DNA from: Bacteriovoracia bacterium
Lineage (GTDB): Bacteria > Bdellovibrionota > UBA1018 > JBFWNL01
Direction: 5' to 3'
Assembly: GCA_050251055.1 (NCBI GenBank)
Contig: JBFWNL010000005.1
Coordinates: 192,001 to 256,000, forward strand
DNA length: 64,000 nt
Shown here: piece after piece, positions 1 through 64,000 of the stretch
Layout: each line of letters opens with the position of its first letter
Position numbering within the stretch: position 1 is the stretch's first letter
The notes under the pieces: generated by a model
Databases searched by the model: none
What the model was told of the DNA's origin: nothing
The model's input: the letters and a program-made list of their open reading frames with translations, nothing else
Program-made: the position numbers and the translations under genes

Positions 1-283
1 CGTCGCTGAAGGAACGCCGCAGGAGATGATTCTGCGACATACGCCGGGATACGTGGGAATCTTTAGCTCGGGCGACAAGTTAAAAATACAGGAGTTGACC
101 TCTGGCCGGCCGGATTTGCCTTGCCACGAGGATGCCTCCGGCGTTTATGTGCGCGCGGGCGCCCTCGAAGATCTGACGAATTTCCACTCGGTGCACGGGC
201 TGCGTCCGCTCCAGATCCGTCCTTCGAATCTCGAAGACGTGTTTCTCCAGCTAACGGGAAAGGAGCTTGCGTCAGATGCTTGA
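1..283 (+). CDS. C-terminal part of ABC transporter ATP-binding protein (NodI/DrrA-like), truncated by window edge
   Basis: Ends in RPSNLEDVFLQLTGKEL, typical of ABC-2 ATPase C-termini; overlaps the start of the permease. Confidence 0.8.
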   Translation, partial: VAEGTPQEMILRHTPGYVGIFSSGDKLKIQELTSGRPDLPCHEDASGVYVRAGALEDLTNFHSVHGLRPLQIRPSNLEDVFLQLTGKELASDA

Positions 284-1055
284 GTGGAAAGAGACGGTCA
301 AGCTCTGCCTTCACATCACGCGGCGGAACTGGACGGTTTACCAAAAGGACCTAGTGGCGAATATCTCTCCGACGGTGGCGGACCCGGCGCTCATCATGGT
401 CTCCCTAGGCTTGGGCTTGGGCGTCTACTTGACTAACGTCGAAGGCATGTCTTACATGCAGTTCCTGGCCCCGGGGTTGACGGTGGCGACTTCGCTTTTT
501 ACCTCCTTCTTCGAGAGCAGTTACGGATTTTACGTGCGCTTGACGTTTGAAAATGTCTTTAAGGCCATGCTTACGACCCCGATCGGGGTGAAGGAGGTGG
601 TCATTGGCGAGATGTTTTGGGTCGGGCTAAAGGGAGGAATCATGTCGCTTGGCGTGGCCGTGGTGCTCGCGCTTTTCGGCATGATGAGCAATCCGTGGCT
701 TATTCCCGCGCTTTTCGGCGTGGGTTTTCTGGTGGCGGTGCCCTGCGGGGCGATGGGGTTGCTCGCGACGGCGCTGGTGCGGAACATCAACCAGTTCCAG
801 TCCGTGTATTCCTTTATTATCGCGCCCCTTTATTTTTTGTCGGGAATTTTCTTTCCCATTGAACAGATGGCCGCGCCCGTCCGGGTCGTGGCGGAGTTTT
901 TTCCGCTGATTCACGGCGTGCGGATGGCCCAGGCCATCTTTTGGGAGCGTGATCTTGTTTCGGCTTGTCTGCCCAGCGGCGCGGCCTTGGTTCTACAGAG
1001 CTTGATTTTCTGCGCACTGGCCTACGTCAAGATACGCAAGAAGCTCGTTAGTTAG
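276..1055 (+). CDS. ABC-2 type transporter permease (NodJ-like)
   Basis: Multiple TM segments, YMQFLAPGL and PLYFLSGIFFPI motifs; AGGAG at 261-265 before ATG 276. Confidence 0.88.
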   Translation: MLEWKETVKLCLHITRRNWTVYQKDLVANISPTVADPALIMVSLGLGLGVYLTNVEGMSYMQFLAPGLTVATSLFTSFFESSYGFYVRLTFENVFKAMLTTPIGVKEVVIGEMFWVGLKGGIMSLGVAVVLALFGMMSNPWLIPALFGVGFLVAVPCGAMGLLATALVRNINQFQSVYSFIIAPLYFLSGIFFPIEQMAAPVRVVAEFFPLIHGVRMAQAIFWERDLVSACLPSGAALVLQSLIFCALAYVKIRKKLVS

Positions 1056-44238: not shown

Positions 44239-46056
44239 CTATACTTTTCCTTCAATCATTGTGATTCTGCTTGGGATACTGCTTTCCTCTGAGGCAAAGC
44301 TAATTTTTGGAATGTTCAAAAACTCGTCAACAATCATGCACCCCTCAACAATCCATGAGCTGTTGTTCTGATTGTGGTTCTTCTTGAGAGTACTTCGGTT
44401 GGCGACACACTTGAGGCCATTTGGAAATAGTTGCTTTAGATGAACGTTCGCCAATGCGGGATCGCACTCAAAATATTCGATCAACTTTTCAAACTTTGCT
44501 TTGAGGGCAAACGGCGTAAGAAGTAGTTTGTCCACATTAGCGAATCTAAGTGACCGAAGCCTGTTGGTGAAGAAAGTTACCTGACCTTCTTTTTCAGACA
44601 GAGCTTCTTTAATTGTCGCTGATGTATCACCGTGAGTTGTCACAAACTTCAGAAGGTTACTTAACTCACGTTCAGCATCCCGTCGTTTGATTTCAAGCGC
44701 TCTGATCTCTTCGGGTGCAACTCGCAACCGCGCCTTAATGATTTCGTTGGACCGTTTGGTTGCAGATTCAAGATAAGCCGTTGACAACAGTACCGATGAG
44801 ATTAAGTCACAGACCTTCTTCTCCGCTTTCTTACGGCTCATAAGGCGATTGTTCGAACAACGGCCTTTGTCTTTCCGGTGGTTCATATAGCAGCCGTAAT
44901 AGCCGCCTTTCTGGCCGGTGATTTGGAGCATAGGAGAACCGCACTCTCCACAGGTCAGAACTCCCGCCAAGAGAGTGTTCGACTTCGATCCTACTTGTTT
45001 GATCTCACGCGCGGTCGCCAATCTATTTCGAGTGCGCTTAAACTTCTCTTGGCTCATAGATAAGCGCGTTTGGACTTTGTTCCAAAGCTCTATGGGAACA
45101 ATGACTAGGTCTTCGCGTACCTCAGATTTGCCGAGATGAGAAATCCATGCATCTGTCGGATGATCGCGCTTCTCAAACTTCTCGGTGTCGGGATTAAGAA
45201 CCCTTGATGTCTTACCCCATTCCCAAATTCCAATGTACTTCTTGCGAGAGAGAATCTTACCAATCGTGGTTGAACTCCAGTTGACCTCACGGCCCGAGAT
45301 TTTCTTACCACGAGTCGTTGATGGAACTTGGCGCTTGTTAAACTCTTTAGCGATGGCGGCCTTTCCCATGCCACCCGCATAAAGCTGGAACATCTCGACG
45401 ATGTGCTTTGACTGTTCTGGTTCAACAAAGATTTTGTAGTGTGATGGGATTTCACGATCACCAACGAATCTGGTCTGAGTGGGCTCAGAGTAGTAACCGT
45501 AGCAAATATCCCCGGTGCTGTACCCCTTGAGGACACGAGCTTCTTGACCACGCTTGGTTCGCTGAGCGTGAATGTCATTGCCCAGTTCGTTGACCAGCCC
45601 CTTTACTTGAAACAGAATCTTGGCGTTAGGGGACTCGGAACTCATGCCATCGCAGAGACTATAGACCTCGTGACTGCGATGCTTGATCTTTCGATAGAAC
45701 TTGTCGGTTTTACCCATTGAACGAAGAGTTCGAGACAGGTCGCAAACGAAACTGACTTTCGCACGACCCTCATCAATGGCCGCGTTGTATTGTTCAAACC
45801 CATCGCGAGCGGCAATGCGGCCAGTTTCGGCTTCGTCTTTGAAAATCAACTCTGGTGGGAATTCAATTCTATATTTCGACAAGGGATACTTGGTGAGAGT
45901 TACGCGTCCAGTGTCAACGTAGTAAATGACCCGAGCGATCTGATCGTTTGCTGACTCCGGGTTTTGCATATCCGAGCTGTACCTTGCATATACAGCCGCG
46001 TGAATGACCTCCCGCGTGTCCCCTTGTTCTTGTCGTCTCGATCTCTCGTATGCCAT
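44239..46056 (-). CDS. Large serine recombinase (resolvase, recombinase, Zn-ribbon, coiled coil)
   Basis: YARYSS catalytic motif, DLSRT.R, CYGY, LLAGVLTCGECG...YYGC...C. Confidence 0.95.
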   Translation of the reverse strand: MAYERSRRQEQGDTREVIHAAVYARYSSDMQNPESANDQIARVIYYVDTGRVTLTKYPLSKYRIEFPPELIFKDEAETGRIAARDGFEQYNAAIDEGRAKVSFVCDLSRTLRSMGKTDKFYRKIKHRSHEVYSLCDGMSSESPNAKILFQVKGLVNELGNDIHAQRTKRGQEARVLKGYSTGDICYGYYSEPTQTRFVGDREIPSHYKIFVEPEQSKHIVEMFQLYAGGMGKAAIAKEFNKRQVPSTTRGKKISGREVNWSSTTIGKILSRKKYIGIWEWGKTSRVLNPDTEKFEKRDHPTDAWISHLGKSEVREDLVIVPIELWNKVQTRLSMSQEKFKRTRNRLATAREIKQVGSKSNTLLAGVLTCGECGSPMLQITGQKGGYYGCYMNHRKDKGRCSNNRLMSRKKAEKKVCDLISSVLLSTAYLESATKRSNEIIKARLRVAPEEIRALEIKRRDAERELSNLLKFVTTHGDTSATIKEALSEKEGQVTFFTNRLRSLRFANVDKLLLTPFALKAKFEKLIEYFECDPALANVHLKQLFPNGLKCVANRSTLKKNHNQNNSSWIVEGCMIVDEFLNIPKISFASEESSIPSRITMIEGKV

Positions 46057-47560: not shown

Positions 47561-48478
47561 TTAGTTCACCTCAACGACGGGCGAAGCTGGGCTGTCCGCA
47601 AGACTCGCATCGGTTCGATCAAAATTTTGTTTTTTGCAGAACACTTGGGTCTTGCCAGAAACCAAAGCAATAATGTGCATTGCTTCAATCCTCTGGATGC
47701 CCATGAACATGATGTCGCTATTGCCAATGATCGCGAGAGTTTTGGCGTACTTTTGACCGTACTTTTTCAAATCGCCAAAGAGTTTAATTGCTTGATTCAT
47801 GTACTCAGCGTCTCCCAATAGCAACTCTCGTTTTGTTGACTTAGTGGCAACGTCTTTTGTTACCTCAAATGTTTTACTCTTAACCTGCTCAAGGACTGCA
47901 TCTCTCTCACCCGGGTCGTCAGGACGGACAATTTGGTCGGCCTGTTTTTGGGTGATCTCTCCTTCGTCAAGGGCCTTTGCGACCTTAGGAGTCATGCGCT
48001 CGCCGATGCGGGTTTTTTCTGTGATCGAGTTCACTGACCGCCCGGTCTCTTTGGCGACCTTTTGGGCGAAACTAAAACTCTGAGAGTTTTTCTTTTTGCC
48101 CCGACCGGTGTCCTCTTTCGTTGTAACTTGCTTGGTCTCTTGCCAGTGCTTCTTGAGCCACGCGAGGGCCTTCATCTCCTCAGACTTCGTGTATGACTCT
48201 CGCTTCATGTTTTCGAAGATTCCAGCCGCAGTCTGAGCATTTTCTGTGTCAAACTCACGAACGACACAGTCGATCTTTTCCCATCCTAATTCTCGTGCGG
48301 CCCGAAGTCTTCGTTCTCCTGCGACAAGAAATTTGTCAGGGGTTATTACGATCGGCTGAAGTAGACCGTTGGCGGCCATGTTCCTTTTGAGGTCCTCAAT
48401 GTCGAAGCATTTCCTGAAGTTGTTCTTAACGACGACTTCAGTCGGGCTGATTTTGATTCTCATATTTTTCAGTGACAT
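47561..48478 (-). CDS. ParB/Spo0J family protein
   Basis: GLLQPIVI, LVAGERRLRA, ENMKR; AGGAG RBS before ATG 48478. Confidence 0.9.
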   Translation of the reverse strand: MSLKNMRIKISPTEVVVKNNFRKCFDIEDLKRNMAANGLLQPIVITPDKFLVAGERRLRAARELGWEKIDCVVREFDTENAQTAAGIFENMKRESYTKSEEMKALAWLKKHWQETKQVTTKEDTGRGKKKNSQSFSFAQKVAKETGRSVNSITEKTRIGERMTPKVAKALDEGEITQKQADQIVRPDDPGERDAVLEQVKSKTFEVTKDVATKSTKRELLLGDAEYMNQAIKLFGDLKKYGQKYAKTLAIIGNSDIMFMGIQRIEAMHIIALVSGKTQVFCKKQNFDRTDASLADSPASPVVEVN

Positions 48479-48671
48479 CGCTTTTCTCCTTGTTTGGCGT
48501 CTGTGTGTAACGGCCAAGCCCAGTGCGACCAAAAATCTGCAACACTCGGCTGCGGATAAAGGGCCACGAATCGGTATGACCGTAAGCTGATTGCAAATTG
48601 TTAAGGAGATTTCGGCGAGCGTAGTCGATGAAGTCTTCGAGTGATTGACCTTTGTACTGTTCGTCCATTCC
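48438..48671 (-). CDS. Small hypothetical protein upstream of parB
   Basis: GGAG before ATG 48671; helical, ending ...LQIFGRTGL; overlaps parB start. Confidence 0.5.
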   Translation of the reverse strand, partial: GMDEQYKGQSLEDFIDYARRNLLNNLQSAYGHTDSWPFIRSRVLQIFGRTGLGRYTQTPNKEKSDVTEKYENQNQPD

Positions 48672-48767
48672 AAAATCTCCGGTGTCCGTAAAACTCGGAT
48701 GGACCATATAAGAGTCTGTGAATGATCGGTAAAAGTGATTAAGGAAATCCTTAACCTCTTAAGGCAC

Positions 48768-49657: not shown

Positions 49658-50272
49658 TTAGAGAACAGCATCAACTCTCGTCTGAGTCGCCGCAGTGAAG
49701 TGGAGATAGATCGCCGTTGTCGATGGACTTGCATGCCCCAAAAAACGCTGAACTTCGTGGAGTAAAAAACCACGGTTAAGCAAATGAGTCGCAAAGTGAT
49801 GTCGAAGCCCATGAAAGTTGATTGATCTATTGATACCACAACGTCGTCGCCAAAATGAAAAACGCCTTTCGACGGTGAATCGACTGAAAGGGCGACTTGA
49901 ACGGTTCAGGAACAGCCTCTGTGTTGGTTCAATCGACTGGTTCATTATCGTTGACTTAATTTTCAATAGCTCCGCGATTGCGCTCTTGCCGCGTTTTCCA
50001 AGAGGAATCACCCGTAACTTTGAACCCTTGCCAATGACCTTGATTGAGTTCTCACTAATGTCACCGATTTTTAGATTGCAGATTTCACTTACTCTCATGC
50101 CAGTTAGACTGCCGATTAAGACAAGAAAGAAGTCGTTGACGTGGTGGACTTTCTTTTTGGTTTGGATAGACTGATCCACAAAGGGTCTGATCGTTTTTAA
50201 AAGCAATTGCAGTTCTGATTCGGTCAAAATGCGATCTTCGGTCAACGTATAGTTTCGCGGTTTTTGATTCAT
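49658..50272 (-). CDS. Short tyrosine recombinase (catalytic domain only)
   Basis: TGMRVSE, GKGSK, HGLRH, LGH, TAIY catalytic set; GGAGG RBS. Confidence 0.92.
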   Translation of the reverse strand: MNQKPRNYTLTEDRILTESELQLLLKTIRPFVDQSIQTKKKVHHVNDFFLVLIGSLTGMRVSEICNLKIGDISENSIKVIGKGSKLRVIPLGKRGKSAIAELLKIKSTIMNQSIEPTQRLFLNRSSRPFSRFTVERRFSFWRRRCGINRSINFHGLRHHFATHLLNRGFLLHEVQRFLGHASPSTTAIYLHFTAATQTRVDAVL

Positions 50273-50403
50273 ATTGAGTCCTCCTAGTTCGATAGGTCTC
50301 AAAACTCATTTTATGGACCAAACTGTGACCTGTCCCGCAAAAGGGGATTATGGGCTCATATGGAGATCATGTAGAACTGCGAAGAAAATCAACGACTTCG
50401 AGC

Positions 50404-51598: not shown

Positions 51599-52744
51599 TT
51601 ACTGGTTCAGTTTCCGCTCGATCGCTTTGATTCTCTGGCTCAAACTTTTGAAGGCTGCACTTTGAAGTTGTCCGTTCAGGTACATTTGTACCAGTTGTTC
51701 CTTCGCCTCTTCATGCCCGCGATCCATTGCCGTGACTAACCATTGGACCGATTTGACTAAATTCTCTTGAGTTCCTTGGCCTTCAAGGTAACAAATTCCA
51801 ACGAAGTATTGTGAATCGAGATCACCCTTTTCCGCAGCTCGAAGGCTCCATCGAAAGGCCTCAGCATTATTTTTCTCGACGCCATCCCCCCGAGAGTAAA
51901 GTGAACCAAGTAAGCCCATTGCTTCGACATTACCTTTCTGGGCAGCCCTCGTCGCCCAATAGAACGCCTTACCGAAATCTTGCGGCAGTCCGTAGTCAGA
52001 AGATTGATAAGTGACCGCGACCTTAGTCATCGCCGCTACATCGCCACTCTCAGCCTTTTTCAAGTTTACCTTTGCGATCTCTTCGAGTTTTTTGGTCTCA
52101 AAGGCATATTGCTTTTGATGCTCGGTGGGAGCACAACCATACTCTTTCGTTAGAGCTTCTCGATCTTTTACGGTTCCAACTTGCTGTTTGGCCAAGAGAA
52201 CTCCTTGGTCATAGGCTCTGCAGAGATACTGAGCACCCATACGCTTGTCCTTGGCAATACAGTTCGATCCTTGAAAGAGCCAATTTGCTAGATTGAACTG
52301 GTACACTTTGTCACCGCCATCGGCTTTCTTCTGAACTGCACCAAACGATTCGCTTGTGGTGGACCATGCCTTACCGTCCCACCACTTTCTCTCTATGACG
52401 GAGCCGTCTTTACACTTGGGGTCGGACTCAATCGATGCGTCGATAGTTCTTTTGCATAACTTTGCTTCTGCTACATCATCGTCAATTCCTTTTGCCGCTG
52501 CGTAATGCGAGATTACGTCCCTCAATTTACGGGCGTTGCCAACATTGGCCTTCACTAAGGATTGGCAAAGGTCATCTAAGTGTTCATCGTCGTTTGCCAC
52601 TTTACAGGCTATGGATTTTGAGACCATGAGGTTTTTCGAGTTGGCTTCGCAGTACACCTTCAAATCTGAAATGACTTCGGCGGCATCGGTAAACGGGACG
52701 GCAAACAGAATACCGACAATTAAGAAATAACGTGTCTTCATCAT
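51599..52744 (-). CDS. Secreted Sel1-repeat protein
   Basis: Signal peptide; repeats like AAQKGNVEAMGLLGSLY..GDGVEKN. Confidence 0.88.
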   Translation of the reverse strand: MMKTRYFLIVGILFAVPFTDAAEVISDLKVYCEANSKNLMVSKSIACKVANDDEHLDDLCQSLVKANVGNARKLRDVISHYAAAKGIDDDVAEAKLCKRTIDASIESDPKCKDGSVIERKWWDGKAWSTTSESFGAVQKKADGGDKVYQFNLANWLFQGSNCIAKDKRMGAQYLCRAYDQGVLLAKQQVGTVKDREALTKEYGCAPTEHQKQYAFETKKLEEIAKVNLKKAESGDVAAMTKVAVTYQSSDYGLPQDFGKAFYWATRAAQKGNVEAMGLLGSLYSRGDGVEKNNAEAFRWSLRAAEKGDLDSQYFVGICYLEGQGTQENLVKSVQWLVTAMDRGHEEAKEQLVQMYLNGQLQSAAFKSLSQRIKAIERKLNQ

Positions 52745-52836: not shown

Positions 52837-53142
52837 TCACTTTGATCCCCACTGGCGGATCGCCGTCGAATAGCTCGTCAGCTTTTCAAACTCGGACTTC
52901 GGCATCGAGGGGCCGATCTCGTGTAAGATATGAGCAACGGCTTCAAGTATGCTGGTCAAGATTGCCTTGATGTGGGCTTGGTCTTCATCTTGAGATTGCC
53001 ACCGTAGTCTCATTCGCCCCTCGTACAAGTTGAGGTAAAGACCAATGAGCTGCATTGACCTGCGATCGCTGACTTGATTGCGCCGAAGGATTGCATTGAT
53101 CTCATCGAGGTGGTTTTCAAAGCATTGAAACGAGTCACTCAT
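52837..53142 (-). CDS. Hypothetical protein coupled to XRE repressor
   Basis: ATGA overlap with the upstream gene. Confidence 0.65.
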   Translation of the reverse strand: MSDSFQCFENHLDEINAILRRNQVSDRRSMQLIGLYLNLYEGRMRLRWQSQDEDQAHIKAILTSILEAVAHILHEIGPSMPKSEFEKLTSYSTAIRQWGSK

Positions 53143-53486
53143 TGGCCCTTCTTCTTTAGACGTCTTGCGGTAATCTCGAAGAAGCCAGAAAAGTCCGGCT
53201 CGTCTTGCACATCGAAAATTTCCCCAAGTGGAATTTCGCTAAAATCAGTTCGACCTTTTTGTCCGGTCAAGAGCCACTCAAAATCGCATTTGAGAGCGCG
53301 ACAAAGTCTCTGGACCGCAAGAGCATCTGTCGGGTTTACGCCTGAGAGCCAATCACCGACTGTGGACGGAGGCACATCAGCCAGTTCCGCCGCAGCTTTC
53401 TGTGAAATGCCTCGATCCACCAAAACCGATTTGAGGTTTTGAGCAAACGGAGAATTAGATTTATGTTTTCTTACACGATCTCTCAT
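53139..53486 (-). CDS. CI-like XRE repressor
   Basis: ISQKAAAELADVPPSTVGDW...DFEWLLTG. Confidence 0.88.
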   Translation of the reverse strand: MRDRVRKHKSNSPFAQNLKSVLVDRGISQKAAAELADVPPSTVGDWLSGVNPTDALAVQRLCRALKCDFEWLLTGQKGRTDFSEIPLGEIFDVQDEPDFSGFFEITARRLKKKGQ

Positions 53487-53506: not shown

Positions 53507-53595
53507 TCGGTTCAACCGAACAGAGAACCAAGAGAAATCCGAAACCACGGTTCACGAACCGCGATCTCGGTTTTTCTTGTTCTGAGTTTTCGGTT
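53507..53595. promoter_or_regulatory. Cluster of CGGTT/AACCG palindromes (putative operators)
   Basis: TCGGTT-C-AACCGA (53507-53519), CGGTTC-AC-GAACCG (53548-53561), and a long imperfect inverted repeat around the latter. Confidence 0.55.
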
Positions 53596-53813
53596 TGGCT
53601 TCTTTGGCGGTCAGTTCCCTAGCGAGTTGTCTTAGCTGAAGCGTGACTGCGCCAAGCGTTGACGACAGAAGTTCGAGTTGTCGAGAGGTCGGTAATTTGT
53701 CAGTTTTGTTTTTCATCAAAACGAGGGACTATCCCGCTTCACTTCGACTTGGCTACAAAAAGGCAGTGACTCCGTGGCTCATTTGGATTGCATAGGGATT
53801 TACGATAGAAACA

Positions 53814-54635
53814 CTATTGGGCGGCAATGTACTCAAGAACTCTTTCTCCAAAGGAAGTTATCAGTGCAAAGTCGTTGCCGTTGATCTCTGACTTCGCGTG
53901 AATACAACCCTCTTGAATTAGCTCACTGAAACACGTTCTTGCATGAAAAATCATGGCCTCGTCGGTGACCCCTTTGTTTTTGAGGTATTCCTTGGCAATA
54001 CGAAACGCCCAGTCGTTGGAGATGTCCGGCGCATCTGTTGCATCCATCGTGGTAGGCTTCGAGCGGGCAATGGGCCAGTTATCTTTGTCCTTGAGGATCA
54101 AGAGAGATTTTAAGTCCATACGTGTAATGGTAGTTATCACTGCACGATGCGATTCAAACTCTTCACTTAGGTCGCTTTCAAGAACTCGCCTCAGTGAACT
54201 CGCTAACAATTCAATCGCTTCGGGAGATGGAATTTCAGACACCATCTTCGACTCGATTTTCTTATAGAGTATGTTGCCTCGTGGATCAGCAATTAAGCTG
54301 GCAATACCCACGATAACCCGTTCAATGTCATCGGTTTTATTTAGGTAGGCCTCGAACAGCAGTTCCTTCTTCTTTTTCTCGACTGCCTCATCAATCTTTT
54401 CTTTAGTTTCAAGAATCCTCTTCGCTTTGTCTGCTCCCGGAATCAAGGACACGACCGTATCAACTATAGTTGCGGCGAGTTCCCTACCTTCGATTTCTAA
54501 GTTCTCATTGTTGGTCAATTCGATTGAATGAAGTCGATCTTCCAATGACTTCACAAGAGCCGCTCTTTTTTGAGGCTCAACAACTTCCACTTGAGGTGCC
54601 CGAGTGATCAATGTATTTTCATTTTTTGAACTCAT
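53814..54635 (-). CDS. Hypothetical protein with C-terminal winged-helix-like end (Abi-alpha/DUF4393-like architecture)
   Basis: GGAG RBS; helical N-terminus; ends LIQEGCI...ITSFGERVLEYI. Confidence 0.65.
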   Translation of the reverse strand: MSSKNENTLITRAPQVEVVEPQKRAALVKSLEDRLHSIELTNNENLEIEGRELAATIVDTVVSLIPGADKAKRILETKEKIDEAVEKKKKELLFEAYLNKTDDIERVIVGIASLIADPRGNILYKKIESKMVSEIPSPEAIELLASSLRRVLESDLSEEFESHRAVITTITRMDLKSLLILKDKDNWPIARSKPTTMDATDAPDISNDWAFRIAKEYLKNKGVTDEAMIFHARTCFSELIQEGCIHAKSEINGNDFALITSFGERVLEYIAAQ

Positions 54636-54644
54636 AGCATCTCC

Positions 54645-55124
54645 TTAATCCAATCCTAACAAGTCCCATCGACCCAGATACTTATCATCGGAATCAACAA
54701 ACTTTCTCATGGTGGTATCCTGTCGTGCCTGTCCCTTTTTTCCGGGAGTTTTGAGCCACGTTTGATGATCTCTTTTTATGAACTCGGCAATGACCTTGCT
54801 GGGAACCACATGGAACTCTGGGTACCTCGATTCAGTCCCAAGATTGACAAGAACGTAGAAGAAATTTGATCCGACTAAATCCTCGGCCTTCTTATTAAGA
54901 AGCCAATACTTGCGATAATCCTGGTTACTCTTCACTTGGATCGCTGCCGTTGTTGTAGCGGTCGCATTTGTGGCGAGAATGTCGACTCCCTTTGCATTTC
55001 GTAGCGTGATACATGCGAGATAGCCTCTGCGGCACAACTCGGCCGCCACCGAATATTCTCCGGCAACACCCGAAAGTCCTGATGAAATCTTCGTTGGTTT
55101 CTGAAACTTTGTTTGATGCTTCAT
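54645..55124 (-). CDS. PD-(D/E)xK-type endonuclease-like protein
   Basis: AGEY.VAAEL.RRG...VDILA...IQVKS motif set; ATGA overlap with the ATPase stop. Confidence 0.8.
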   Translation of the reverse strand: MKHQTKFQKPTKISSGLSGVAGEYSVAAELCRRGYLACITLRNAKGVDILATNATATTTAAIQVKSNQDYRKYWLLNKKAEDLVGSNFFYVLVNLGTESRYPEFHVVPSKVIAEFIKRDHQTWLKTPGKKGQARQDTTMRKFVDSDDKYLGRWDLLGLD

Positions 55125-57574
55125 TGCTTGGGCCTTAGATTGAAGTTGATGGTGCCACACTCACATCGAACTGTTTCGGGTTGCCCCTTAATGGGCGATA
55201 CATAAAGCCATGCTTTGCACCCCCCACACTGGAGGGTTGCTATCAGAGCTTTGAACGCATCAAGAACCTTACGGAACTCGGGAGGCGAAAGATTGACCCA
55301 CTCGTTGTAGTGAACCGACGCATTGACCGCCCATTGTTCAGCGTTTGTAGCCGTATACTTACTACCGAAGTCTGAACTCAGTGCCGACACCTTTTCAACC
55401 ACGTCCTTCTGATTCCAAGAATTTGCTGCGGCATTGGCTTTCTTAAAGATGTCTTTGATTCGACCAGCTACCGCTGGCATTAAATCACCCAGTTCGTAAT
55501 TTGCAGTTGGCCGAGCTTCGACGGTAGCCCTTAGTTTGAAAGATAACTCTGCCATCAAAAACTCAAGGTAACGACGAAGGGTTCCAGCAGCGTCCGTAAC
55601 CTTGCTTTCTCCTAGGTCTTTTTCAATTTCAGTCCACACTTCGCCCATGTCCCATGCTGCCGGGCCGTCAGCCACAGTCCATTTCCTGAAATGAAGAAGA
55701 TTTTTGTTAGTCACAACACCTTCGAGACTTAGCTGTTTGCCCCAAACTTCATCGTGCGTAGTAATGATGAGCTGCACACTCTGAAATTCAGTCTTCAATA
55801 ACTTGCAAACCTCACGGCGGTGGCTTGAATCGACGGACATCAACACATCGTCCAGAAGGCATAGCGAGAAGGACTCTCCAAGTAGTCTTTTCGACAATGC
55901 TAAATAAAGGCAAAGGCCCATTCCATCTTGGTGGCCTTCGCTGTGATAGGCATTGGGCGGGAATTGTCCACGACCATAGAAATCAACTTCAAAATTGAGC
56001 GAGCCATCAGTGGGACTCAGCTTTGCCGAAAATCCCGCCTCGTCATCGCTGTTCAACATTTGATAGTAGCGGGCGAAATCCTTCTCAACCTGACTGTACA
56101 AAGTAGTTAGCGTTTTTTCGCTTACATTCGTAAAGTGAGCAAGAGTAGCTGTCGCAATCGCCGCTCGTTTCTTTTGGACATCATGCTCTGACCGAGCACT
56201 ACGAAATAAGCGAAGTCTTTCATCCGCGAGAACAAGGTATTGTTTGGCACCCTCTTCCGCAGTCAAATCCGGCAACTTATTTACTTCGGCCTCTAGGGTG
56301 TCCAAAAACCTTTTGGTGGTATCAGCGATACACGATTGAAGACCATTGAAGGCGTTCTTTGCACCGGCTAAGTTTTCAACCGGTCTCAACAACGACGCTT
56401 CTAAGTCACGAAGTTGAGATGCAGCTTCTTTAAGAGCCTTTTCGACTTCAACCAGACCGAGAGTTTGAGCAACAGTCGTGAGTTGTTCAAAATCTGAGGC
56501 ATTAGTACGAATTACCTGGACGGTTTCTGTTGCTGCTTTTTCGATGGCAGACTTTACTGCGGCAGCCTGTTGCCCCTTCTTGATCTTTTCTTGAAGGTGC
56601 GTGCGGAGATCACCCTGATCCCATTCTTCGTCACAAAGAGGACAACTATCATTTACGATTTTCAATAGGCCTTGCTCAAAAAATGTTTGCTGACTGAGAC
56701 TTTGCAAGATTTCTGGATTCGACTCCAGGCTTATAATTGCATCAGAACCTTGCTTTTTTACGACCGAAGTTTTTCCCCAAGGTTTATCCAAATTAGTTTT
56801 CAGCTTTGACACTCGCACAGAGCAATCCGTTTTTGAAATCGTCCGTTTTTTTTCTTTCGAGTCGGAAGCAATGCCATCACTGACTTTGACATCAGCCGTA
56901 ACATCGCTCAAAGCCGAAAGGCCGAGCAGTATTCGACGCTCGTTGACCGACTTTAATAGAGCCTCCTTTGTGAGTTCGGGGAGTTTGAGGTGAGCAAGCA
57001 AGTCGGCTTTAGCCTTCGAGTGAGATGCGTCAGCGGCTTTTTCTTCACGAGCTGCAGTATTACTTGCCGTCTGCAGGCTCGCTCGTATTTTTCCGATGGA
57101 GTCTAATTTTAGGAGTTCTTGAACCTCTTTAGCTCTTTGGCCTGGCTCAGTTAAGATGAATCTCAAAATCTCTTTTCTCGAAAGCGAAAACTCGGGATGG
57201 GAAGTAATGAATTGAAGAGCCGCCTTAGTCTCAAGAGTTTCGGGAGTTACCGTTGGTTTATTGTGAGCAGCGACGGTGCGCTCGACTGAAAACTTCGTTC
57301 CAGAAGGAAGGGACAAGTCCAGCACAACACGACACTTTTCTGGTGCGTCCTTACAATCGACATGAGGAGCATGACTCTTTACTGATACACCCGATGATCC
57401 TACCCCTGTCAGCCGTGTAATTGTGCCAGTTAGACCAAATTCGATCGCGTCGATAACTCCGCTTTTGCCACTTCCATTGGGACCTTTAATTACTAAGCTC
57501 TGTCCCCCAATAGGAATTTGAAGTTTTCTTATACCTCTGAAGTTCTCGATAAGAATTGATTCCACCTTAATCAC
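55121..57574 (-). CDS. Rad50/SMC-like ABC ATPase with zinc hook, HEPN-like C-terminal region and Zn ribbon
   Basis: ENFRGI, Walker A GPNGSGKS, CPLC hook in coiled coil, SEGH signature, LLDDV..SVD, TTHD, LRRYLE...NASVH, CGGC...CEC. Confidence 0.88.
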   Translation of the reverse strand: MIKVESILIENFRGIRKLQIPIGGQSLVIKGPNGSGKSGVIDAIEFGLTGTITRLTGVGSSGVSVKSHAPHVDCKDAPEKCRVVLDLSLPSGTKFSVERTVAAHNKPTVTPETLETKAALQFITSHPEFSLSRKEILRFILTEPGQRAKEVQELLKLDSIGKIRASLQTASNTAAREEKAADASHSKAKADLLAHLKLPELTKEALLKSVNERRILLGLSALSDVTADVKVSDGIASDSKEKKRTISKTDCSVRVSKLKTNLDKPWGKTSVVKKQGSDAIISLESNPEILQSLSQQTFFEQGLLKIVNDSCPLCDEEWDQGDLRTHLQEKIKKGQQAAAVKSAIEKAATETVQVIRTNASDFEQLTTVAQTLGLVEVEKALKEAASQLRDLEASLLRPVENLAGAKNAFNGLQSCIADTTKRFLDTLEAEVNKLPDLTAEEGAKQYLVLADERLRLFRSARSEHDVQKKRAAIATATLAHFTNVSEKTLTTLYSQVEKDFARYYQMLNSDDEAGFSAKLSPTDGSLNFEVDFYGRGQFPPNAYHSEGHQDGMGLCLYLALSKRLLGESFSLCLLDDVLMSVDSSHRREVCKLLKTEFQSVQLIITTHDEVWGKQLSLEGVVTNKNLLHFRKWTVADGPAAWDMGEVWTEIEKDLGESKVTDAAGTLRRYLEFLMAELSFKLRATVEARPTANYELGDLMPAVAGRIKDIFKKANAAANSWNQKDVVEKVSALSSDFGSKYTATNAEQWAVNASVHYNEWVNLSPPEFRKVLDAFKALIATLQCGGCKAWLYVSPIKGQPETVRCECGTINFNLRPKQ

Positions 57575-57753
57575 GAAACCTCCGGTGTGGAGGCAAAAAT
57601 GACTTTTAATTCAGCTGGCGTAATCGAAGATTTGGTCTCGAAGTGCTTTTTCAAAAGATCAACGACATGGTTTGGTACGGCATCATCAGCCACCAGGTCC
57701 TTAAAGAACTGAGCTAAAATTTCTTCGACAAGTGCGGAATTTTCTTCTTTCAC
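57571..57753 (-). CDS. 60-aa helical protein coupled to the ATPase
   Basis: 4-nt overlaps on both sides; GAGG upstream. Confidence 0.65.
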   Translation of the reverse strand: MKEENSALVEEILAQFFKDLVADDAVPNHVVDLLKKHFETKSSITPAELKVIFASTPEVS

Positions 57754-58403
57754 TGTATGACCTCAGCTAATGCGGCAGGAATCACCATGTTGCCGTTCTT
57801 GTCTCGAACCACTTTGCGAGATCGGGCATGGCTCATATAGATTGTGCACATTCCAATTTGAGTTTTTTCCCCTTCGACTATTTCAGGAATCGTACGTTTG
57901 ATGCCAAACAAGTAAAAGCCATGAGCTTCTAGCCCTTGAATCTCTTGAGAAAGTTGAAACTCAATTTTCAATCTTTTTACCGGGTCAGCATCATGCCATC
58001 TAACTATGTCCGCTTTTATGTGGGTGACGATGTCTGCCATAGCATTCACAGCCCGGATATCGTCGGCCCCATCGTGCTCTACTTGAAACCGGTACGCACC
58101 CTCGAAAATGTTAGTCAAATCTCTACCCGTAGTGAGTCGTGGCAACAGGTGTACCTTTTTTTGCGGGATCATTTTTTCTTGAGACTTAGAGGTCGGGTTC
58201 AGTTGCTTGACATCCATTCCAAATGCTTGGGCAACCCCCATCAATGTTTCAAATGATGCAGTCCCATCTTTCTCTAGCCTTTGTATTGTACGAAGGTTGA
58301 CGCCAGCGACCTCTGCAAGCTGCCTCTGCGGCCATGCACGTTCTTCGCGTTCCTTTTTTACGAGTTTTGCTCTTCCAATATTTTTTGCCATTGTTTCTTC
58401 CAT
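57750..58403 (-). CDS. XRE HTH regulator with extra C-terminal domain
   Basis: WPQRQLAEVAGVNLRTIQRLE HTH followed by a domain of about 130 aa. Confidence 0.88.
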   Translation of the reverse strand: MEETMAKNIGRAKLVKKEREERAWPQRQLAEVAGVNLRTIQRLEKDGTASFETLMGVAQAFGMDVKQLNPTSKSQEKMIPQKKVHLLPRLTTGRDLTNIFEGAYRFQVEHDGADDIRAVNAMADIVTHIKADIVRWHDADPVKRLKIEFQLSQEIQGLEAHGFYLFGIKRTIPEIVEGEKTQIGMCTIYMSHARSRKVVRDKNGNMVIPAALAEVIQ

Positions 58404-58457
58404 ACCGGTTCCTTTCGTTTTTCAAAAGAAAATAACCGGTTTGCCAAAAAGGTGTTA

Positions 58458-58495
58458 CGACACGACGACGACAGTTATGCGACAGTATTATGACT
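58458..58495. promoter_or_regulatory. Phased direct repeats (CGACA x3 plus TGACT, 11-bp period)
   Basis: Repeats start at 58458, 58469, 58480, 58491, about 55 bp upstream of the XRE gene. Confidence 0.6.
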
Positions 58496-58554: not shown

Positions 58555-58935
58555 TTAGGGTATCGAAACCAGCGATCGTGCCACAGCCAAAACCGTCGCA
58601 AGTTCCTTGTCTCGCATTCGTCGAACCAACTCCAATAGCTCCTGCTCAGGCGTAACCACCTGTTGATATGTCCTCACACGTTCACGAAAAGTCCCGAGCT
58701 GAGTGCCATATACTTTCAATAGCTTCTTCAATTTATCGTGTTGAAGATCAATCCGGCCTGTTTCGACGTGGGCGATATAGGTGTCTGACAATCCCACGGC
58801 TTCAGCAACTTTTCGCATCGACAGCCGTGCCTCTGCTCGCAGAAGTTTCAGAACCCGAGCTTCATCGGTCATTACAATTCGGTCACTGCGTTTTTTAGTC
58901 CGGTAAGTCTCAATCAAAATGCCTCCAAAATCCAA
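58555..58935 (-). CDS. XRE family HTH regulator
   Basis: LSMRKVAEAVGLSDTYIAHVETGR; start uncertain. Confidence 0.85.
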   Translation of the reverse strand: MDFGGILIETYRTKKRSDRIVMTDEARVLKLLRAEARLSMRKVAEAVGLSDTYIAHVETGRIDLQHDKLKKLLKVYGTQLGTFRERVRTYQQVVTPEQELLELVRRMRDKELATVLAVARSLVSIP

Positions 58936-59246: not shown

Positions 59247-60470
59247 TCACGACATTCTCGCACTTGGGGCGGTGTTTTTGAATTCAAGTAGGTTCACTAC
59301 ATGATCCATAACTTGATCGTCACTAGTGTGTAAGAGTCGCATTGTTTCTGTTGCACCTTGCTCGTCGATACCTGCCATACGGATATATCGCTGCATGGTT
59401 TTAAGATCCTTCCATCCACAAATTTTCATGACCGTCGTCGGTGGAACACCACTCGAAATTATCTGAGTGGCGAAACACGCTCTGAGGGTATGAAATTTTA
59501 TGGACGTGAGGCCCTCGTCCAAACAGAACTTACGAAGTACAGCAGCTTGCATTCCACGATCCCAATCACCGAATCTAGGAAGGACGTGGGACGAATTCCC
59601 AGTCTCCTTCTTAAGCTCTACTAAAAACCAGTAGAGTTCACCCGATATTGGGACAGTCCGCCAATACCCACCTTTAGTTGGCCCAGTGGCTTTGAACCGA
59701 CCGTTGTAGGTTAGTACAACTCGAATCAAGCCATAGCGCCGCTTGTTTGTAGGTAATGACTCTTGCTTGCGAGCCTCCTCCTCAGGAATCAATTCAACGT
59801 TTGCCCAAGGAAGTGCATGAAGCTCTCCCGACCGCATTCCAGTCAAGAGCGCAACAGTCCACACCTTATACCAACGATGCCCACGCTCTTTGGATCGGGT
59901 CAGAAAGGTCTTGATTTCGGAAAGAGTGAGAATTTCAGGAAGCTTTTCTTCCTTATCTTTTCCAATATCAATTCCGTAAACCGGGCTGTGATGCACCCCG
60001 GTTACGTATCTCTCTTCAATTCCCCAACAGTAGATTTTGTTAATTGTGTTCCTAAGCTTTCTCAAAAAAGCGGTGTTCTTTCCTGCTTCCTGAGCAAACC
60101 TGAGAACTTCTCTACCGTCTCCTCGGTTTAAATCCTCGGCTGATTTTCCGAACCAAATCCGAGTCCAGCCTCGGACAAGAGCTGCGTAATCGACGATTGT
60201 AGTCCTGACCAAGTTTTCAAGACCGTAGGTGAGCTTGTCGTGCTCCCAATCGTCGATAATTTCTTCCCAAGTTGCTCCCTTAAGTTCAAGTTTTGCAACT
60301 TGCTTTGAAAGCTCCAAGTGGAGTTTCTTTTCTTCTTGAATTGCCGCTTGCTCACTAGCCAGTCCTCTCATTCGACGCTGTAGTCGAAGATTTGGTCGTC
60401 TGCTGCTTTTCACGTCAACATACGCTTGCCAAAGGACGTGACCATTATGTTCATATTGACTTACTGCCAT
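59247..60470 (-). CDS. Tyrosine integrase
   Basis: TGMRSGE, TKGG, FHTLR, GW...TMQRY catalytic set. Confidence 0.93.
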   Translation of the reverse strand: MAVSQYEHNGHVLWQAYVDVKSSRRPNLRLQRRMRGLASEQAAIQEEKKLHLELSKQVAKLELKGATWEEIIDDWEHDKLTYGLENLVRTTIVDYAALVRGWTRIWFGKSAEDLNRGDGREVLRFAQEAGKNTAFLRKLRNTINKIYCWGIEERYVTGVHHSPVYGIDIGKDKEEKLPEILTLSEIKTFLTRSKERGHRWYKVWTVALLTGMRSGELHALPWANVELIPEEEARKQESLPTNKRRYGLIRVVLTYNGRFKATGPTKGGYWRTVPISGELYWFLVELKKETGNSSHVLPRFGDWDRGMQAAVLRKFCLDEGLTSIKFHTLRACFATQIISSGVPPTTVMKICGWKDLKTMQRYIRMAGIDEQGATETMRLLHTSDDQVMDHVVNLLEFKNTAPSARMS

Positions 60471-61706: not shown

Positions 61707-62639
61707 TTAAGTTCCTAATAAGCGTGATTGGGTCGGGTGATCGCTATTTGAGCTTTGAGCCAAAGTTATTGTTTTGCTTGGCCTTGTCTTCGAATCGAGC
61801 AACACATTCTCGACACTACTGTGTTGGATTCGTGATGGAATTGTGTCGCTTCCACAGGCATACCCTTGGACGAGAGTTGAATAGAGGCTTTGGTTTTGAT
61901 CAGCACCCAGAATGGGTTTTGAACTCCAGCCATGTTTTTTCAAATCCGACAAAAGAAAGAACGAATGCTTCTTATGGTAACTAGGGTTCTTAGCTGCAAA
62001 GATTCTGGACATCATTTGAGCCAATGCTTTATTCCCAACAATCCACATGACGCGAGCGATGCTAGTTTCACGGTCATAGAAATAGCTAACTGACTCGTAC
62101 TCAGTCGGTACTTTCTTGCTGACTTCCACCTCTAATGAAAAGAGATGAGAGCCACCGGCCACCGGAATGGACCAATACCCGTCAGGCCTGTGGTTGTCGG
62201 GTGAAGGAACCCAGCTTGCCAACGCTTGAGAATGGTATCGTCGCAACTGCTGTTCAGTTATGAACTCTACACCTCTGGGAATCCCAGTAACCCATTCACC
62301 AAGGTGAACGGCCGTGACCAAGGTGTCGTGATTAATGTTTTCTGACTTGAAACCTGTTTCCTTGAGGGGAGGAAAAAGGTCTTTTACTGCTTCGAACCCT
62401 TTTTTGGTCAAAGTCCATACTTTAAACTGGCCGCGCTTTTCATGCTGGAGTTCGACAAATCCTGAACGTTGAAGACGCAACAGCCTGTGGTAAGTGGAGA
62501 AATGATAGTCTTCAAAATGGTTTCGAAAGAGGTGCGTGGCGAGTGTGTTGGTGGTTGCGACCTTCCAAAGCCAAAGAAAGCTTAAAATTGGAATATCGGT
62601 TTCAGTGCTGAGGCGAATGGGTTTTTTGCTTTTGTTCAT
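61707..62639 (-). CDS. Replication-relaxation family-like protein
   Basis: N-terminal wHTH (LTKKG), HDTLV, RPDG, LEVEVS.K motifs; ATGA overlap with FtsK. Confidence 0.72.
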   Translation of the reverse strand: MNKSKKPIRLSTETDIPILSFLWLWKVATTNTLATHLFRNHFEDYHFSTYHRLLRLQRSGFVELQHEKRGQFKVWTLTKKGFEAVKDLFPPLKETGFKSENINHDTLVTAVHLGEWVTGIPRGVEFITEQQLRRYHSQALASWVPSPDNHRPDGYWSIPVAGGSHLFSLEVEVSKKVPTEYESVSYFYDRETSIARVMWIVGNKALAQMMSRIFAAKNPSYHKKHSFFLLSDLKKHGWSSKPILGADQNQSLYSTLVQGYACGSDTIPSRIQHSSVENVLLDSKTRPSKTITLAQSSNSDHPTQSRLLGT

Positions 62640-64000
62640 TTTGATTTCCTTTTCTTACCCGCCTGAAGAGCAGACGCGGATATACCGATCGTCTCGTTAC
62701 CAGTTGTTTTGATAACGGGAAGGTTTTGGCTCGTGGTTTGTGCTTCCACAATTTCCTGGGTGGTTTGGGTTGATTCTTCCCAGTGTGACAAAAGCAATTG
62801 CTTGACTTCATCTTCACTCAGCTCTGGAACCTGGACTTCAATCAAATCCAAACCGTTTCTCCAAATGGCTCGGCCTTTAATCGAAGGCAGATCAGCTGCA
62901 CGAACACTGTCCAAAATGGTCATGCTCGATGCATTGTCGGCCATAGGAAAGCAGAGCCGTCCTTGGAGATTGGTTTTAGTGAGTGGATCAACAGCATTGC
63001 GGTCAGGGCGTTGGGTAGCCACGATAAGATGAATCCCAACTGCCCGACCTTGTGCGGCCAAAGTACTGGCGAGGCGACGTGCTTCCTGTGTTTGTTTCGA
63101 ATCCAATTGGGAGCCGCCTGCGAGGAACAGTTCTGCGGCTTCGTCGATTACGACAACGTGGCGACCAACAATGCTGCCTGCTCGCCAATCATCAGGATAT
63201 TTCCGATCTTCGGTTTTCTTCGATAGGAAGACTTCAATGTTTTTGCATTCGTTTAGCTTGAGCAGCGAGGCTCTGTGTTCAATGGTTTGCTCCAGGATGC
63301 GCAAAGCGCTCACTGCTCCGTGGAGGTTCGAAACAACGTTTACGCGAGGGAGTTTTTCAAAAATCTGAAACTCCAAACCGCGTTTAAGGTCAATCAAAGT
63401 CAGTTCGGTGCCTGGATTATTTAGATAAAGCGTTGTGATCGCCTGTCGCAGGAACGTGGATTTACCAAAATTGGTCACACCGCCCACAAGCATGTGGGGT
63501 ACTTCTTTAAGGTTAATGGTGATCCTTCCGGATCTAGAATCACCCACGACGAAACAGTATTCTTTGTATTCGCCTAGATTTTCAAATCGAGAGGATGTGG
63601 GCATCGGAGCCGTAGCGTATTTGATGTCCAGGACACCCAAAGTGCGAATTTCGCGGAGATCATCCACATAAACTCTTAGGCTCGCACCGATTCGGTCCTT
63701 GGCTTTGTCAAAATCGGCGTACGGAATGCCATTCATTCTCAATCTGAGGTTTCGAGTCTGCTGGTCAATTGGCTTGTCCGAGATGAACGCTGGCAAACGA
63801 TTCATCGGGGTTTTTAAACCTGCGTTGATAAAAGTTTCTGTGAGATTTTTTGTCAGGATCCGAAGCCGAACCGTTTGAATCATTCCCCAGCCAAGAAAGC
63901 CAGAGAGGCTCAACGTAATTGCATAGAGGAAGTAAATAAAATCAAAGCGATGAATGAGAGAATAAAGAACGGTCGTTCGGGTTAATTTGAAAATGTAGTA
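62636..64000 (-). CDS. FtsK/SpoIIIE ATPase (coupling-protein-like), 5'-truncated
   Basis: PHMLVGG...GKS, IDLK, VVIDEAAE, GRAVGIHLIVATQRP; frame stays open to 64000. Confidence 0.92.
   Translation of the reverse strand, partial: YYIFKLTRTTVLYSLIHRFDFIYFLYAITLSLSGFLGWGMIQTVRLRILTKNLTETFINAGLKTPMNRLPAFISDKPIDQQTRNLRLRMNGIPYADFDKAKDRIGASLRVYVDDLREIRTLGVLDIKYATAPMPTSSRFENLGEYKEYCFVVGDSRSGRITINLKEVPHMLVGGVTNFGKSTFLRQAITTLYLNNPGTELTLIDLKRGLEFQIFEKLPRVNVVSNLHGAVSALRILEQTIEHRASLLKLNECKNIEVFLSKKTEDRKYPDDWRAGSIVGRHVVVIDEAAELFLAGGSQLDSKQTQEARRLASTLAAQGRAVGIHLIVATQRPDRNAVDPLTKTNLQGRLCFPMADNASSMTILDSVRAADLPSIKGRAIWRNGLDLIEVQVPELSEDEVKQLLLSHWEESTQTTQEIVEAQTTSQNLPVIKTTGNETIGISASALQAGKKRKSK

Follow-up and report, generated by a model that had tools for sequence, protein, structure and literature searches.

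Five co-oriented genes follow one another at very short distances in a mobile element of a Bacteriovoracia bacterium, and the question that this locus raises is whether they act together as one anti-phage system or whether only some of them belong together. The genes (here called g1 to g5) lie on the minus strand of the window, by which we mean the whole stretch of 64,000 nucleotides (nt) that was analysed (assembly GCA_050251055.1, contig JBFWNL010000005.1, positions 192,001 to 256,000). A first-pass annotation had proposed a candidate defence operon consisting of an XRE-type regulator (g1), a protein of 60 amino acids (aa; g2), an ATPase resembling Rad50 and the structural maintenance of chromosomes (SMC) proteins (g3), a PD-(D/E)xK nuclease (g4) and a protein ending in a winged helix-turn-helix (wHTH; g5). 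The explanation that we favour, and that we hold to be somewhat likelier right than wrong as a whole, is narrower: g2 and g3 would constitute a self-contained, widespread and unnamed two-gene Rad50-like sensor/effector, probably defensive, whereas g1, g4 and g5 would be unrelated cargo.

The evidence for a two-gene unit comes from the surroundings of the ATPase in other genomes. A pattern scan of species-representative genomes yielded 530 stretches confirmed by tblastn, from which 80 loci covering many phyla were kept. Searching all open reading frames (ORFs) of at least 40 aa in these loci with phmmer, the ATPase was found in 80/80, and relatives of g1, g2, g4 and g5 were found in none. All-against-all clustering of the flanking ORFs gave just two large clusters (51 and 22 loci), both made up of ORFs of 58-66 aa that share the strand of the ATPase and lie directly upstream of it (median distance -3). 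A hidden Markov model (HMM) built from these small upstream ORFs matches g2 at E 6.6e-11 and has an upstream match in 75 of the 80 genome loci, with a 4-nt overlap in 66 of the 75; across loci the length of the small partner ranges from 58 to 70 aa, and two of the five loci lacking it have less than 140 nt of sequence on the upstream side. The small ORF is also present in all of eight additional full-length loci (six metagenome and two viral contigs), bringing the total to 83 out of 88. On Rhizobium and Phaeobacter plasmids the same ORF is called independently by RefSeq. In addition, pairwise identities within the g2 family co-vary with those of the ATPases (Spearman 0.72 for 71 pairs, a value reached by 0 of 300 label permutations), a correlation that is inflated by kinship and that shows that the two genes are not shuffled.

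A third conserved gene was not found: each Pfam family is represented in at most 3 of the 145 immediate neighbours surveyed (out of 151, the six longest being left out), and in the 80 loci the gene downstream of the ATPase is frequently encoded on the opposite strand. Neighbouring families include integrases, ResIII, Eco57I, MmeI and N6 methylases, BrxL, AlwI, ArdA and RecT, as well as ordinary metabolic genes. Because the small ORF accompanies the ATPase while g1, g4 and g5 do not, we conclude with high confidence that the functional unit is the g2-g3 cassette and not the set of five genes.

The five genes were nonetheless proposed as one defence system, in which an XRE regulator, an SMC-like sensor with its small partner, two effectors (the C-terminal domain of g3 and the nuclease g4) and a wHTH accessory protein would cooperate. 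We consider this very unlikely, even though the arrangement speaks for it (shared orientation, three 4-nt overlaps and a 9-nt gap, with no strong terminator-like site within the block), as do the nuclease fold of g4 and an indirect link, namely that the relatives P0253 (g1, 83% identical) and P0007 (g3, 62% identical) may be neighbours. The first-pass annotation had suggested examining neighbourhood conservation of the ATPase homologues and giving up the system if they did not co-occur with the small protein or the nuclease. Within 5-6 kb of the 88 ATPase loci (80 genome loci plus eight metagenome or viral loci) the outcome is favourable for the small protein, but nuclease, XRE and wHTH relatives occur in 0/88, so that the five-gene system with g4 as nuclease effector does not survive its own test. 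Elsewhere the three genes keep other company. In other Bdellovibrionota genomes g1 relatives precede a 987-aa MmeI/Eco57I-like restriction-modification (RM) enzyme (L111 4700-8668), a 1736-aa P-loop protein (L107 2969-8911) or unrelated genes; g4 relatives are present in four viral contigs without the ATPase within 5 kb, and are 55-60% identical across Bdellovibrionota, the Candidate Phyla Radiation (CPR), Chloroflexota and Nanoarchaeota, as expected for a free-standing gene; and a g5 relative (53% identical) is located in genome G090 on a contig without the ATPase. Among the close relatives listed no pairing of g3 with g4 is seen, which allows a weak inference in the same direction. From the occurrence of g1, g4 and g5 without the ATPase it therefore follows that g2-g3 is the unit and that the operon in the window is a local assemblage: the three are separable island cargo within the same transcription unit. 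In this case, tight 4-nt overlaps inside an island were no sign of a functional system.

Structure prediction points to a physical association of g2 and g3. Using the 21-sequence g3 alignment and an alignment of the small protein as input, three runs gave an ipSAE interface score of 0.66, 0.66 and 0.67, against 0.00 for the best control. In calibration, 58 of 80 solved complexes attained this ipSAE mark, compared with 2 of 110 mismatched pairs, figures that apply only approximately here given the use of our own alignments. The three runs share at least 94% of their contacts, with a predicted local distance difference test (pLDDT) score of at least 80 for the partner. The predicted interface involves residues 122-174 and 470-492 of g3, which are both strands of the coiled coil beside the head, and most of g2; F16 and L20, the only two nearly invariant residues of g2, are both central in it. 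Hence g2 is predicted to sit on the head-proximal coiled coil of g3. The Rad50-binding helices of Mre11 occupy this same head-proximal position. The partner role that had been suspected for the 60-aa protein is thus supported by both conservation and modelling. By itself g2 is acidic and helical, without a family match in Pfam, PADLOC or NCBIfam and without anything significant among solved chains in a sequence search of the Protein Data Bank (PDB).

For g3 the Rad50/SMC-like nature is clear from several sources. Pfam matches comprise SMC_N (E 5.9e-18) and AAA_23, the PHROG match is SbcC-like, and the nearest solved relatives by PDB sequence search are Rad50 heads (E 7e-11); against NCBIfam no model scores above its cut-off. 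Relatives number 3015 (E <= 0.001, out of 8000 candidates scored), and nearly all of those listed are 800-850 aa with 98-100% coverage, indicating homology over the full length. Current records call g3 just "AAA family ATPase" and g2 "hypothetical protein". The motifs read earlier from g3 (Walker A, CPLC hook, SEGH signature, LRRYLE...NASVH and zinc ribbon) are all present, and all invariant in the 21-sequence family alignment on which invariance was judged throughout. In the ATPase part these are Walker A (G31..S38, including K37), Q152, the zinc hook C311-P-x-C314, the signature H544-S-E-G-H-Q-D550 (core S545-E-G-H-Q549), L574-D-D-V..D582 (including D575-D576) and T605-T-H-D608 (including H607). 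With K37, Q152, S545, D575-D576 and H607 all preserved, the ATPase looks competent as far as its residues can tell. The N-lobe furthermore carries H68-x2-H71-V-D73 (window 57356-57373, minus strand), a motif that is invariant in the family and missing from the RloC-like proteins compared; it might bind a metal or serve as the place where the C-terminal domain docks.

The last 180 residues of g3 hold an invariant R-x3-E...N-x3-H signature and a four-Cys zinc ribbon, the invariant positions being R667, E671, W720, W748, N751, H755 and W759, followed by C783, C786, C804 and C806. Judged by this conservation, R, E, N and H seem to serve catalysis rather than structure. An AlphaFold2 (AF2) model of residues 612-817 (81 sequences, pLDDT 82.6) consists of a helical bundle followed by a three-stranded zinc ribbon. 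A PDB profile search with this domain returned nothing below E 0.69, and Pfam and PADLOC gave no consistent match for 81 members, 3 of which weakly match Csx1/Csm6. In the structural atlas the domain matches unnamed clusters and further SMC-type ATPases that have it at their end; an exhaustive profile search gave at least 1000 matches, of which the best 150 all belong to the g3 family or are fragments of it. HEPN-containing entries make up 9 of the top 21 rows of a VIA structural alignment (4txa, 8oz7, 2hsb, 4nqf, 1ufb, 1wwp, 3o10, 1ylm and 1wol). The topology also fits what the HEPN survey describes, with an acidic residue in an early helix, a helical insert and a His in the flexible region that follows the penultimate helix (PMC3710099). 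We infer that the domain may be of the HEPN kind and that g3 may sense DNA ends, both of which had been part of the initial proposal. That the domain is a ribonuclease (RNase) is, by analogy, a serious possibility that stops short of being probable.

Taken together, the pair might work as follows. g3 would dimerise via its zinc hook and engage its heads with ATP, and g2, a protein of two to three helices, would clamp the coiled coil at its base next to the head. If RloC and LmuB are a guide, the complex would scan DNA for ends or breaks, or for foreign DNA. A change in head and coiled coil that depends on both nucleotide and DNA could then unleash the C-terminal domain, which as a metal-independent RNase of the RloC/PrrC/HEPN kind would stop translation and abort the infection.

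The distribution of the pair is broad and patchy. At least 530 confirmed stretches are found in species-representative genomes of Acidobacteriota, Pseudomonadota, CPR, Spirochaetota and Bdellovibrionota, yet among 101 genomes of the order to which the bacterium belongs g3 is present only in the window's own (the 100 others have no relatives of g1 or g3). Relatives of g3 occur on 24 plasmid records, including large plasmids; those on haloarchaeal plasmids are 23-29% identical. Two full-length copies are present in IMG/VR viral contigs, and some g2-g3 loci neighbour RM, BREX or integrase genes. Occurrence of this patchy and mobile kind is in keeping with a module for defence or addiction. In the literature no description of the pair was found, although a mention in the 2020 classification of ABC ATPases or in supplementary tables is possible.

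Altogether we consider it probable that g2-g3 is defensive. A non-immune role is unlikely, though it deserves consideration: the pair could be an accessory factor in DNA repair or recombination, or a plasmid or island addiction module, with the C-terminal domain and zinc ribbon binding nucleic acid. This would agree with Rad50 heads as closest solved relatives, with the double-strand-break-repair Gene Ontology term in RefSeq and the name 'RecF' given to relatives by JGI, and with the many immediate neighbours that are ordinary metabolic or regulatory genes and the presence of the pair on large plasmids. It agrees less well with the sporadic occurrence within the order, with the catalytic look of the invariant polar R, E, N and H, and with the integrative element here and the RM genes or integrases beside some other loci. 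Nor is there a conserved partner of the Mre11/SbcD type: among the 145 neighbours, an adjacent Mre11/SbcD nuclease is not one of the 25 commonest Pfam families.

As to the cargo, g1 has a Cro/C1-type helix-turn-helix (HTH; Pfam HTH_3, E 6.2e-9, 36.2 bits against a cut-off of 23), in agreement with its XRE assignment; its C-terminal part of about 130 residues has no family match, and neither g1 nor g5 gives anything significant against PDB sequences. The 167 relatives of g1, where a source is named, are from Bdellovibrio-like bacteria, and 7 of 401 genomes of the phylum contain one. Together with the genes they precede, this suggests that g1 is of a kind of lineage-specific regulator heading variable defence cargo; in the window it is the local head of the operon, outside the conserved module.

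The PD-(D/E)xK assignment of g4 was borne out by its fold. The alignment-based AF2 model (pLDDT 92.4) shows the restriction-endonuclease-like alpha-beta-beta-beta-alpha-beta core, and Foldseek matches it at E 2e-5 to 1e-3 to the homing endonuclease I-Ssp6803I (the best match, E 2e-5), SPARDA nuclease domains and Hjc, with probability 1.00 to 2ost, 2wcw, 9jt2 and others; in Pfam it has no family. E23, Q63 and K65 are invariant and D48 is present in at least 90% of sequences. Fold and motif order (E...D...x-K) are therefore those of I-Ssp6803I, Hjc and the DREN-type nucleases of SPARDA, whereas in Q63-V-K65 a Gln takes the place of the second acidic residue of the motif, the g4 family (697 relatives, about 150 aa) is unnamed, and its link with the ATPase is confined to the window. 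It may act as a selfish or defensive nuclease that stands on its own. The one further match in the search for g1, g4 and g5 relatives, in the g4 locus L094 (which is not an ATPase locus), is weak and limited to the HTH. Some NCBI records call g4 relatives 'aspartate ammonia-lyase', an apparent misnomer.

The wHTH ending of g5 can be upheld in part: there are weak signals for DUF4364 (E 0.0025, below the Pfam cut-off) and MarR-like structural neighbours (TM about 0.3). g5 is a helical protein that matches the unannotated phrog_15873 (E 4.9e-19), and its neighbours in the structural atlas are unnamed families (Abi_alpha covers 25% of one cluster with a score of 0.88, a lead only). It is found in 2 of 101 genomes, including the window's own, and relatives occur in two Latilactobacillus phages. 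Beside the g5 relative in G090 lies a 379-aa XRE-type protein with HExxH in its C-terminal half, overlapped upstream by a 221-aa gene (L084 1782-3579, minus strand). By eye this half may be ImmA/IrrE-like, and the two genes may be another small island module.

Coordinates of the locus are collected in the table. They confirm the reported co-orientation, mobile setting, overlaps and spacer; the sole discrepancy is the end coordinate 58495, which lies 92 nt beyond the ATG of g1 (58403). The overlaps are GTGA between g1 and g2 (57753-57750) and between g2 and g3 (57574-57571), and ATGA between g3 and g4 (55124-55121), followed by the 9-nt spacer between g4 and g5. For g4 the ORF listing has an alternative frame of 171 aa starting with GTG at 55160. 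Purine runs resembling Shine-Dalgarno sequences can be read ahead of all five starts. Inside g1-g5 the terminator scan found no terminator-like sites with more than 6 stem pairs; the hairpin 3' of g5 is the sole strong one of the region and a possible end of the transcription unit, although the scan overall performs no better than on shuffled sequence (8 found against 7.0 expected) and is weak evidence. A 55-aa ORF (53719..53552, minus strand) reaches into this hairpin and is probably spurious.

Features of the g1-g5 locus and its surroundings (window coordinates, or residue numbers for the parts of g3)
Feature	Position	Strand	Remarks
g1	58403..57750	minus	217 aa, ATG start
g2	57753..57571	minus	60 aa, GTG start
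g3	57574..55121	minus	817 aa, GTG start
g3 head	residues 1-~150 and ~500-640		
g3 coiled coil	residues ~155-500		
g3 CPLC zinc hook	residues 311-314		
g3 C-terminal helical domain	residues ~640-780		with R667, E671, N751, H755
g3 zinc ribbon	residues 783-806		
g4	55124..54645	minus	159 aa counted from ATG
g5	54635..53814	minus	273 aa
Terminator-like hairpin	53570..53539	minus	14-pair stem and T-rich tail, 3' of g5; consensus match only
Serine recombinase	44239-46056		
ParB-like gene	47561-48673		
Tyrosine recombinase, short	49658-50302		214 aa
Sel1-repeat protein	51599-52744		
XRE gene	53139-53486		
XRE gene	58555-58935		just upstream of g1
Tyrosine recombinase	60470..59247	minus	407 aa, just upstream of the g1-g5 block
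FtsK/SpoIIIE	62636-63913		further upstream of g1-g5

The block is located inside an integrative element that spans roughly 44-64 kb of the window and contains recombinases, a ParB-like gene and FtsK/SpoIIIE. The serine recombinase, the ParB-like gene and the shorter tyrosine recombinase are on the downstream side of g1-g5, and the kdp genes (kdpAB) mark the chromosomal side of the element. Overall the island (43800-64000) looks like an integrative and conjugative element (ICE), or a composite of elements, beside kdpAB.

How g3 relates to RloC was assessed with AAA_13 proteins from the same phylum, a family that we take to be RloC/PrrC (hook and triad in 9/9 full-length hits agree with this). 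Of the 401 genomes 21 have such a protein. Each of nine full-length proteins shows a single CxxC and an invariant R-x3-E...H and scores E 1e-74 to 1e-271 with the PADLOC model PDC-S06. As described, RloC combines a Rad50-like head and a CxxC hook with an Arg-x3-Glu-x36-52-His triad (PMC2610378). Like g3, it is a single polypeptide of about 730-820 aa in which the ATP-binding cassette (ABC) head is split by a coiled coil with one CxxC hook, with a 'DD' Walker B and, some 60-70 residues past the H-loop, a helix L-R-[RK]-x-L-E that is followed by a conserved His. A BLASTP comparison of g3 with one RloC-like protein (E 6e-5 in a 9-sequence set) runs collinearly from the hook, where C311-P-L-C314 is aligned with CPFC, through signature, Walker B and H-loop as far as the R-x3-E helix, in which R and E are in register. 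On the other hand, g3 differs from RloC in an extra helical insert, the four-Cys zinc ribbon, the invariant H-x2-H-V-D and the obligate 60-aa partner, which was not found in 9/9 RloC-like loci. Against AAA_13, g3 has no match at E <= 0.1 in the Pfam scan, nor in the genome search; its fragment from hook to end is matched best by LmuB (E 2.7e-13) and also by PDC-S06 (E 4.2e-6), both on the ATPase part only. g3 thus shares the design of RloC and, probably, the earlier half of the nuclease domain, yet the second half differs and g3 forms a family of its own.

A number of observations pull the other way and temper the two-gene sensor/effector reading. Regarding the unit itself, the 4-nt overlaps g1-g2 and g3-g4 would also suit functional coupling, and the loci from the metagenome scan come from relatives of about 40% identity, the closest g3 relatives (77-88% identity) lying outside the loci covered. 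Regarding defence, the neighbours of the ATPase loci are very heterogeneous, defence or mobile genes being a minority, and no g3 relative was found in 50,697 GenBank phage records. The C-terminal domain raises most of these points. The distance between E and H is 83 residues in g3 against 36-52 in RloC, so that the RloC triad is absent, and an hhalign comparison of the C-terminal alignments pairs no more than the LRxxLE helices, in register and without significance (probability 6.3%, E 0.0059, 30 columns). Within the model the N751-H755 loop is predicted with the lowest confidence (pLDDT <50), Foldseek against the PDB gives nothing at E <= 0.001, and the best VIA alignment (Z 6.0, rmsd 3.8, 113-114 residues aligned) falls in a range, Z 5-6, that helical bundles reach by chance (Z below about 13 being common). 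The Rx4-6H motif, which the HEPN survey places at the end of helix 3 (PMC3710099), is not seen either: the family consensus is W-x2-N-x3-H, with no conserved Arg 5-7 residues before H755. In the same survey, variant HEPN families are described that use a basic residue from elsewhere (PMC3710099), and R667 could be such a stand-in.

The second system to be compared is Lamassu (LmuA-LmuC-LmuB, or DdmABC), and a Lamassu-type explanation can be formulated in which g3 is LmuB, g2 a minimal LmuC, and the effector either fused to g3 or a variable neighbour like g4. We judge this quite unlikely. The PADLOC search that had been recommended at the outset indeed gives LmuB (PDLC03859) as best match to g3 (E 1.5e-24, residues 1-611 against 2-586 of the 611 profile positions) and, as stated above, for its fragment from hook to end; there was no match to g2. 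Known Lamassu systems moreover have a zinc-hook SMC-like LmuB and a small single-domain LmuC, of which some types carry a Mre11-like coiled-coil-binding domain (bioRxiv 10.1101/2025.03.14.643221). The likeness extends to the ATPase, to the small helical partner just upstream and to a mobile, patchy occurrence. The LmuB match is, however, not specific for Lamassu, because PDLC03859 matches the RloC-like proteins too (E 1e-15 to 1e-17). We therefore rejected g3 as a plain LmuB; the model is generic for zinc-hook Rad50-like ATPases, and a lone match to it is not evidence of Lamassu. Lamassu also has a separate effector, LmuA, made up of an effector domain and a C-terminal domain, whereas in g3 the putative effector is fused to the ATPase: no LmuA-like effector gene or conserved third gene was found in the 88 loci, and g4 is a 159-aa protein without an extra domain that is absent from the related loci. 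In the solved Lamassu complex LmuC is located by hook and head (same preprint), while the predicted site of g2 is at the base of the coiled coil; g2 matches no model of the LmuC middle component (types MC1-MC8), although with its 60 aa it may be too short or too diverged for such a match, and among the 43 PDB sequence matches of g3 at E <= 0.001 there is no solved Lamassu chain. The statement of the first-pass annotation that g3 is Rad50/SMC-like and fits neither RloC nor Lamassu exactly is consequently borne out by the model comparisons.

If defensive, g2-g3 would add to the SMC/Rad50-based immune sensors a compact system of two genes with a very broad range. At 60 aa the partner would, if the proposed role is true, be smaller than any known regulator of a Rad50-like coiled coil and offer a tractable model for the gating of head engagement by proteins that bind the neck, and the C-terminal domain might represent a new family of RNases or else connect the RloC/PrrC nuclease to its relatives as a missing link.

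With Rad50-Mre11 and SbcCD, finally, g3 has head, coiled coil and hook in common, Rad50 being its nearest solved relative. The differences are that the partner has no phosphoesterase nuclease domain, that the coiled coil is much shorter, that a C-terminal domain has been added, and that the pair is sporadic and mobile rather than core. A bolder reading, which we put forward tentatively and hold to be rather doubtful, is that g2-g3 is a new and widespread two-component immune module, in which a 60-residue clamp resembling the Rad50-binding domain (RBD) of Mre11 would, at the neck of the coiled coil, restrain a zinc-hook sensor with an undescribed RNase, its R-x3-E/N-x3-H site braced by a zinc ribbon, until foreign or broken DNA is sensed and the RNase is set off; as such the pair would form a bridge between Rad50-Mre11, Lamassu and RloC.

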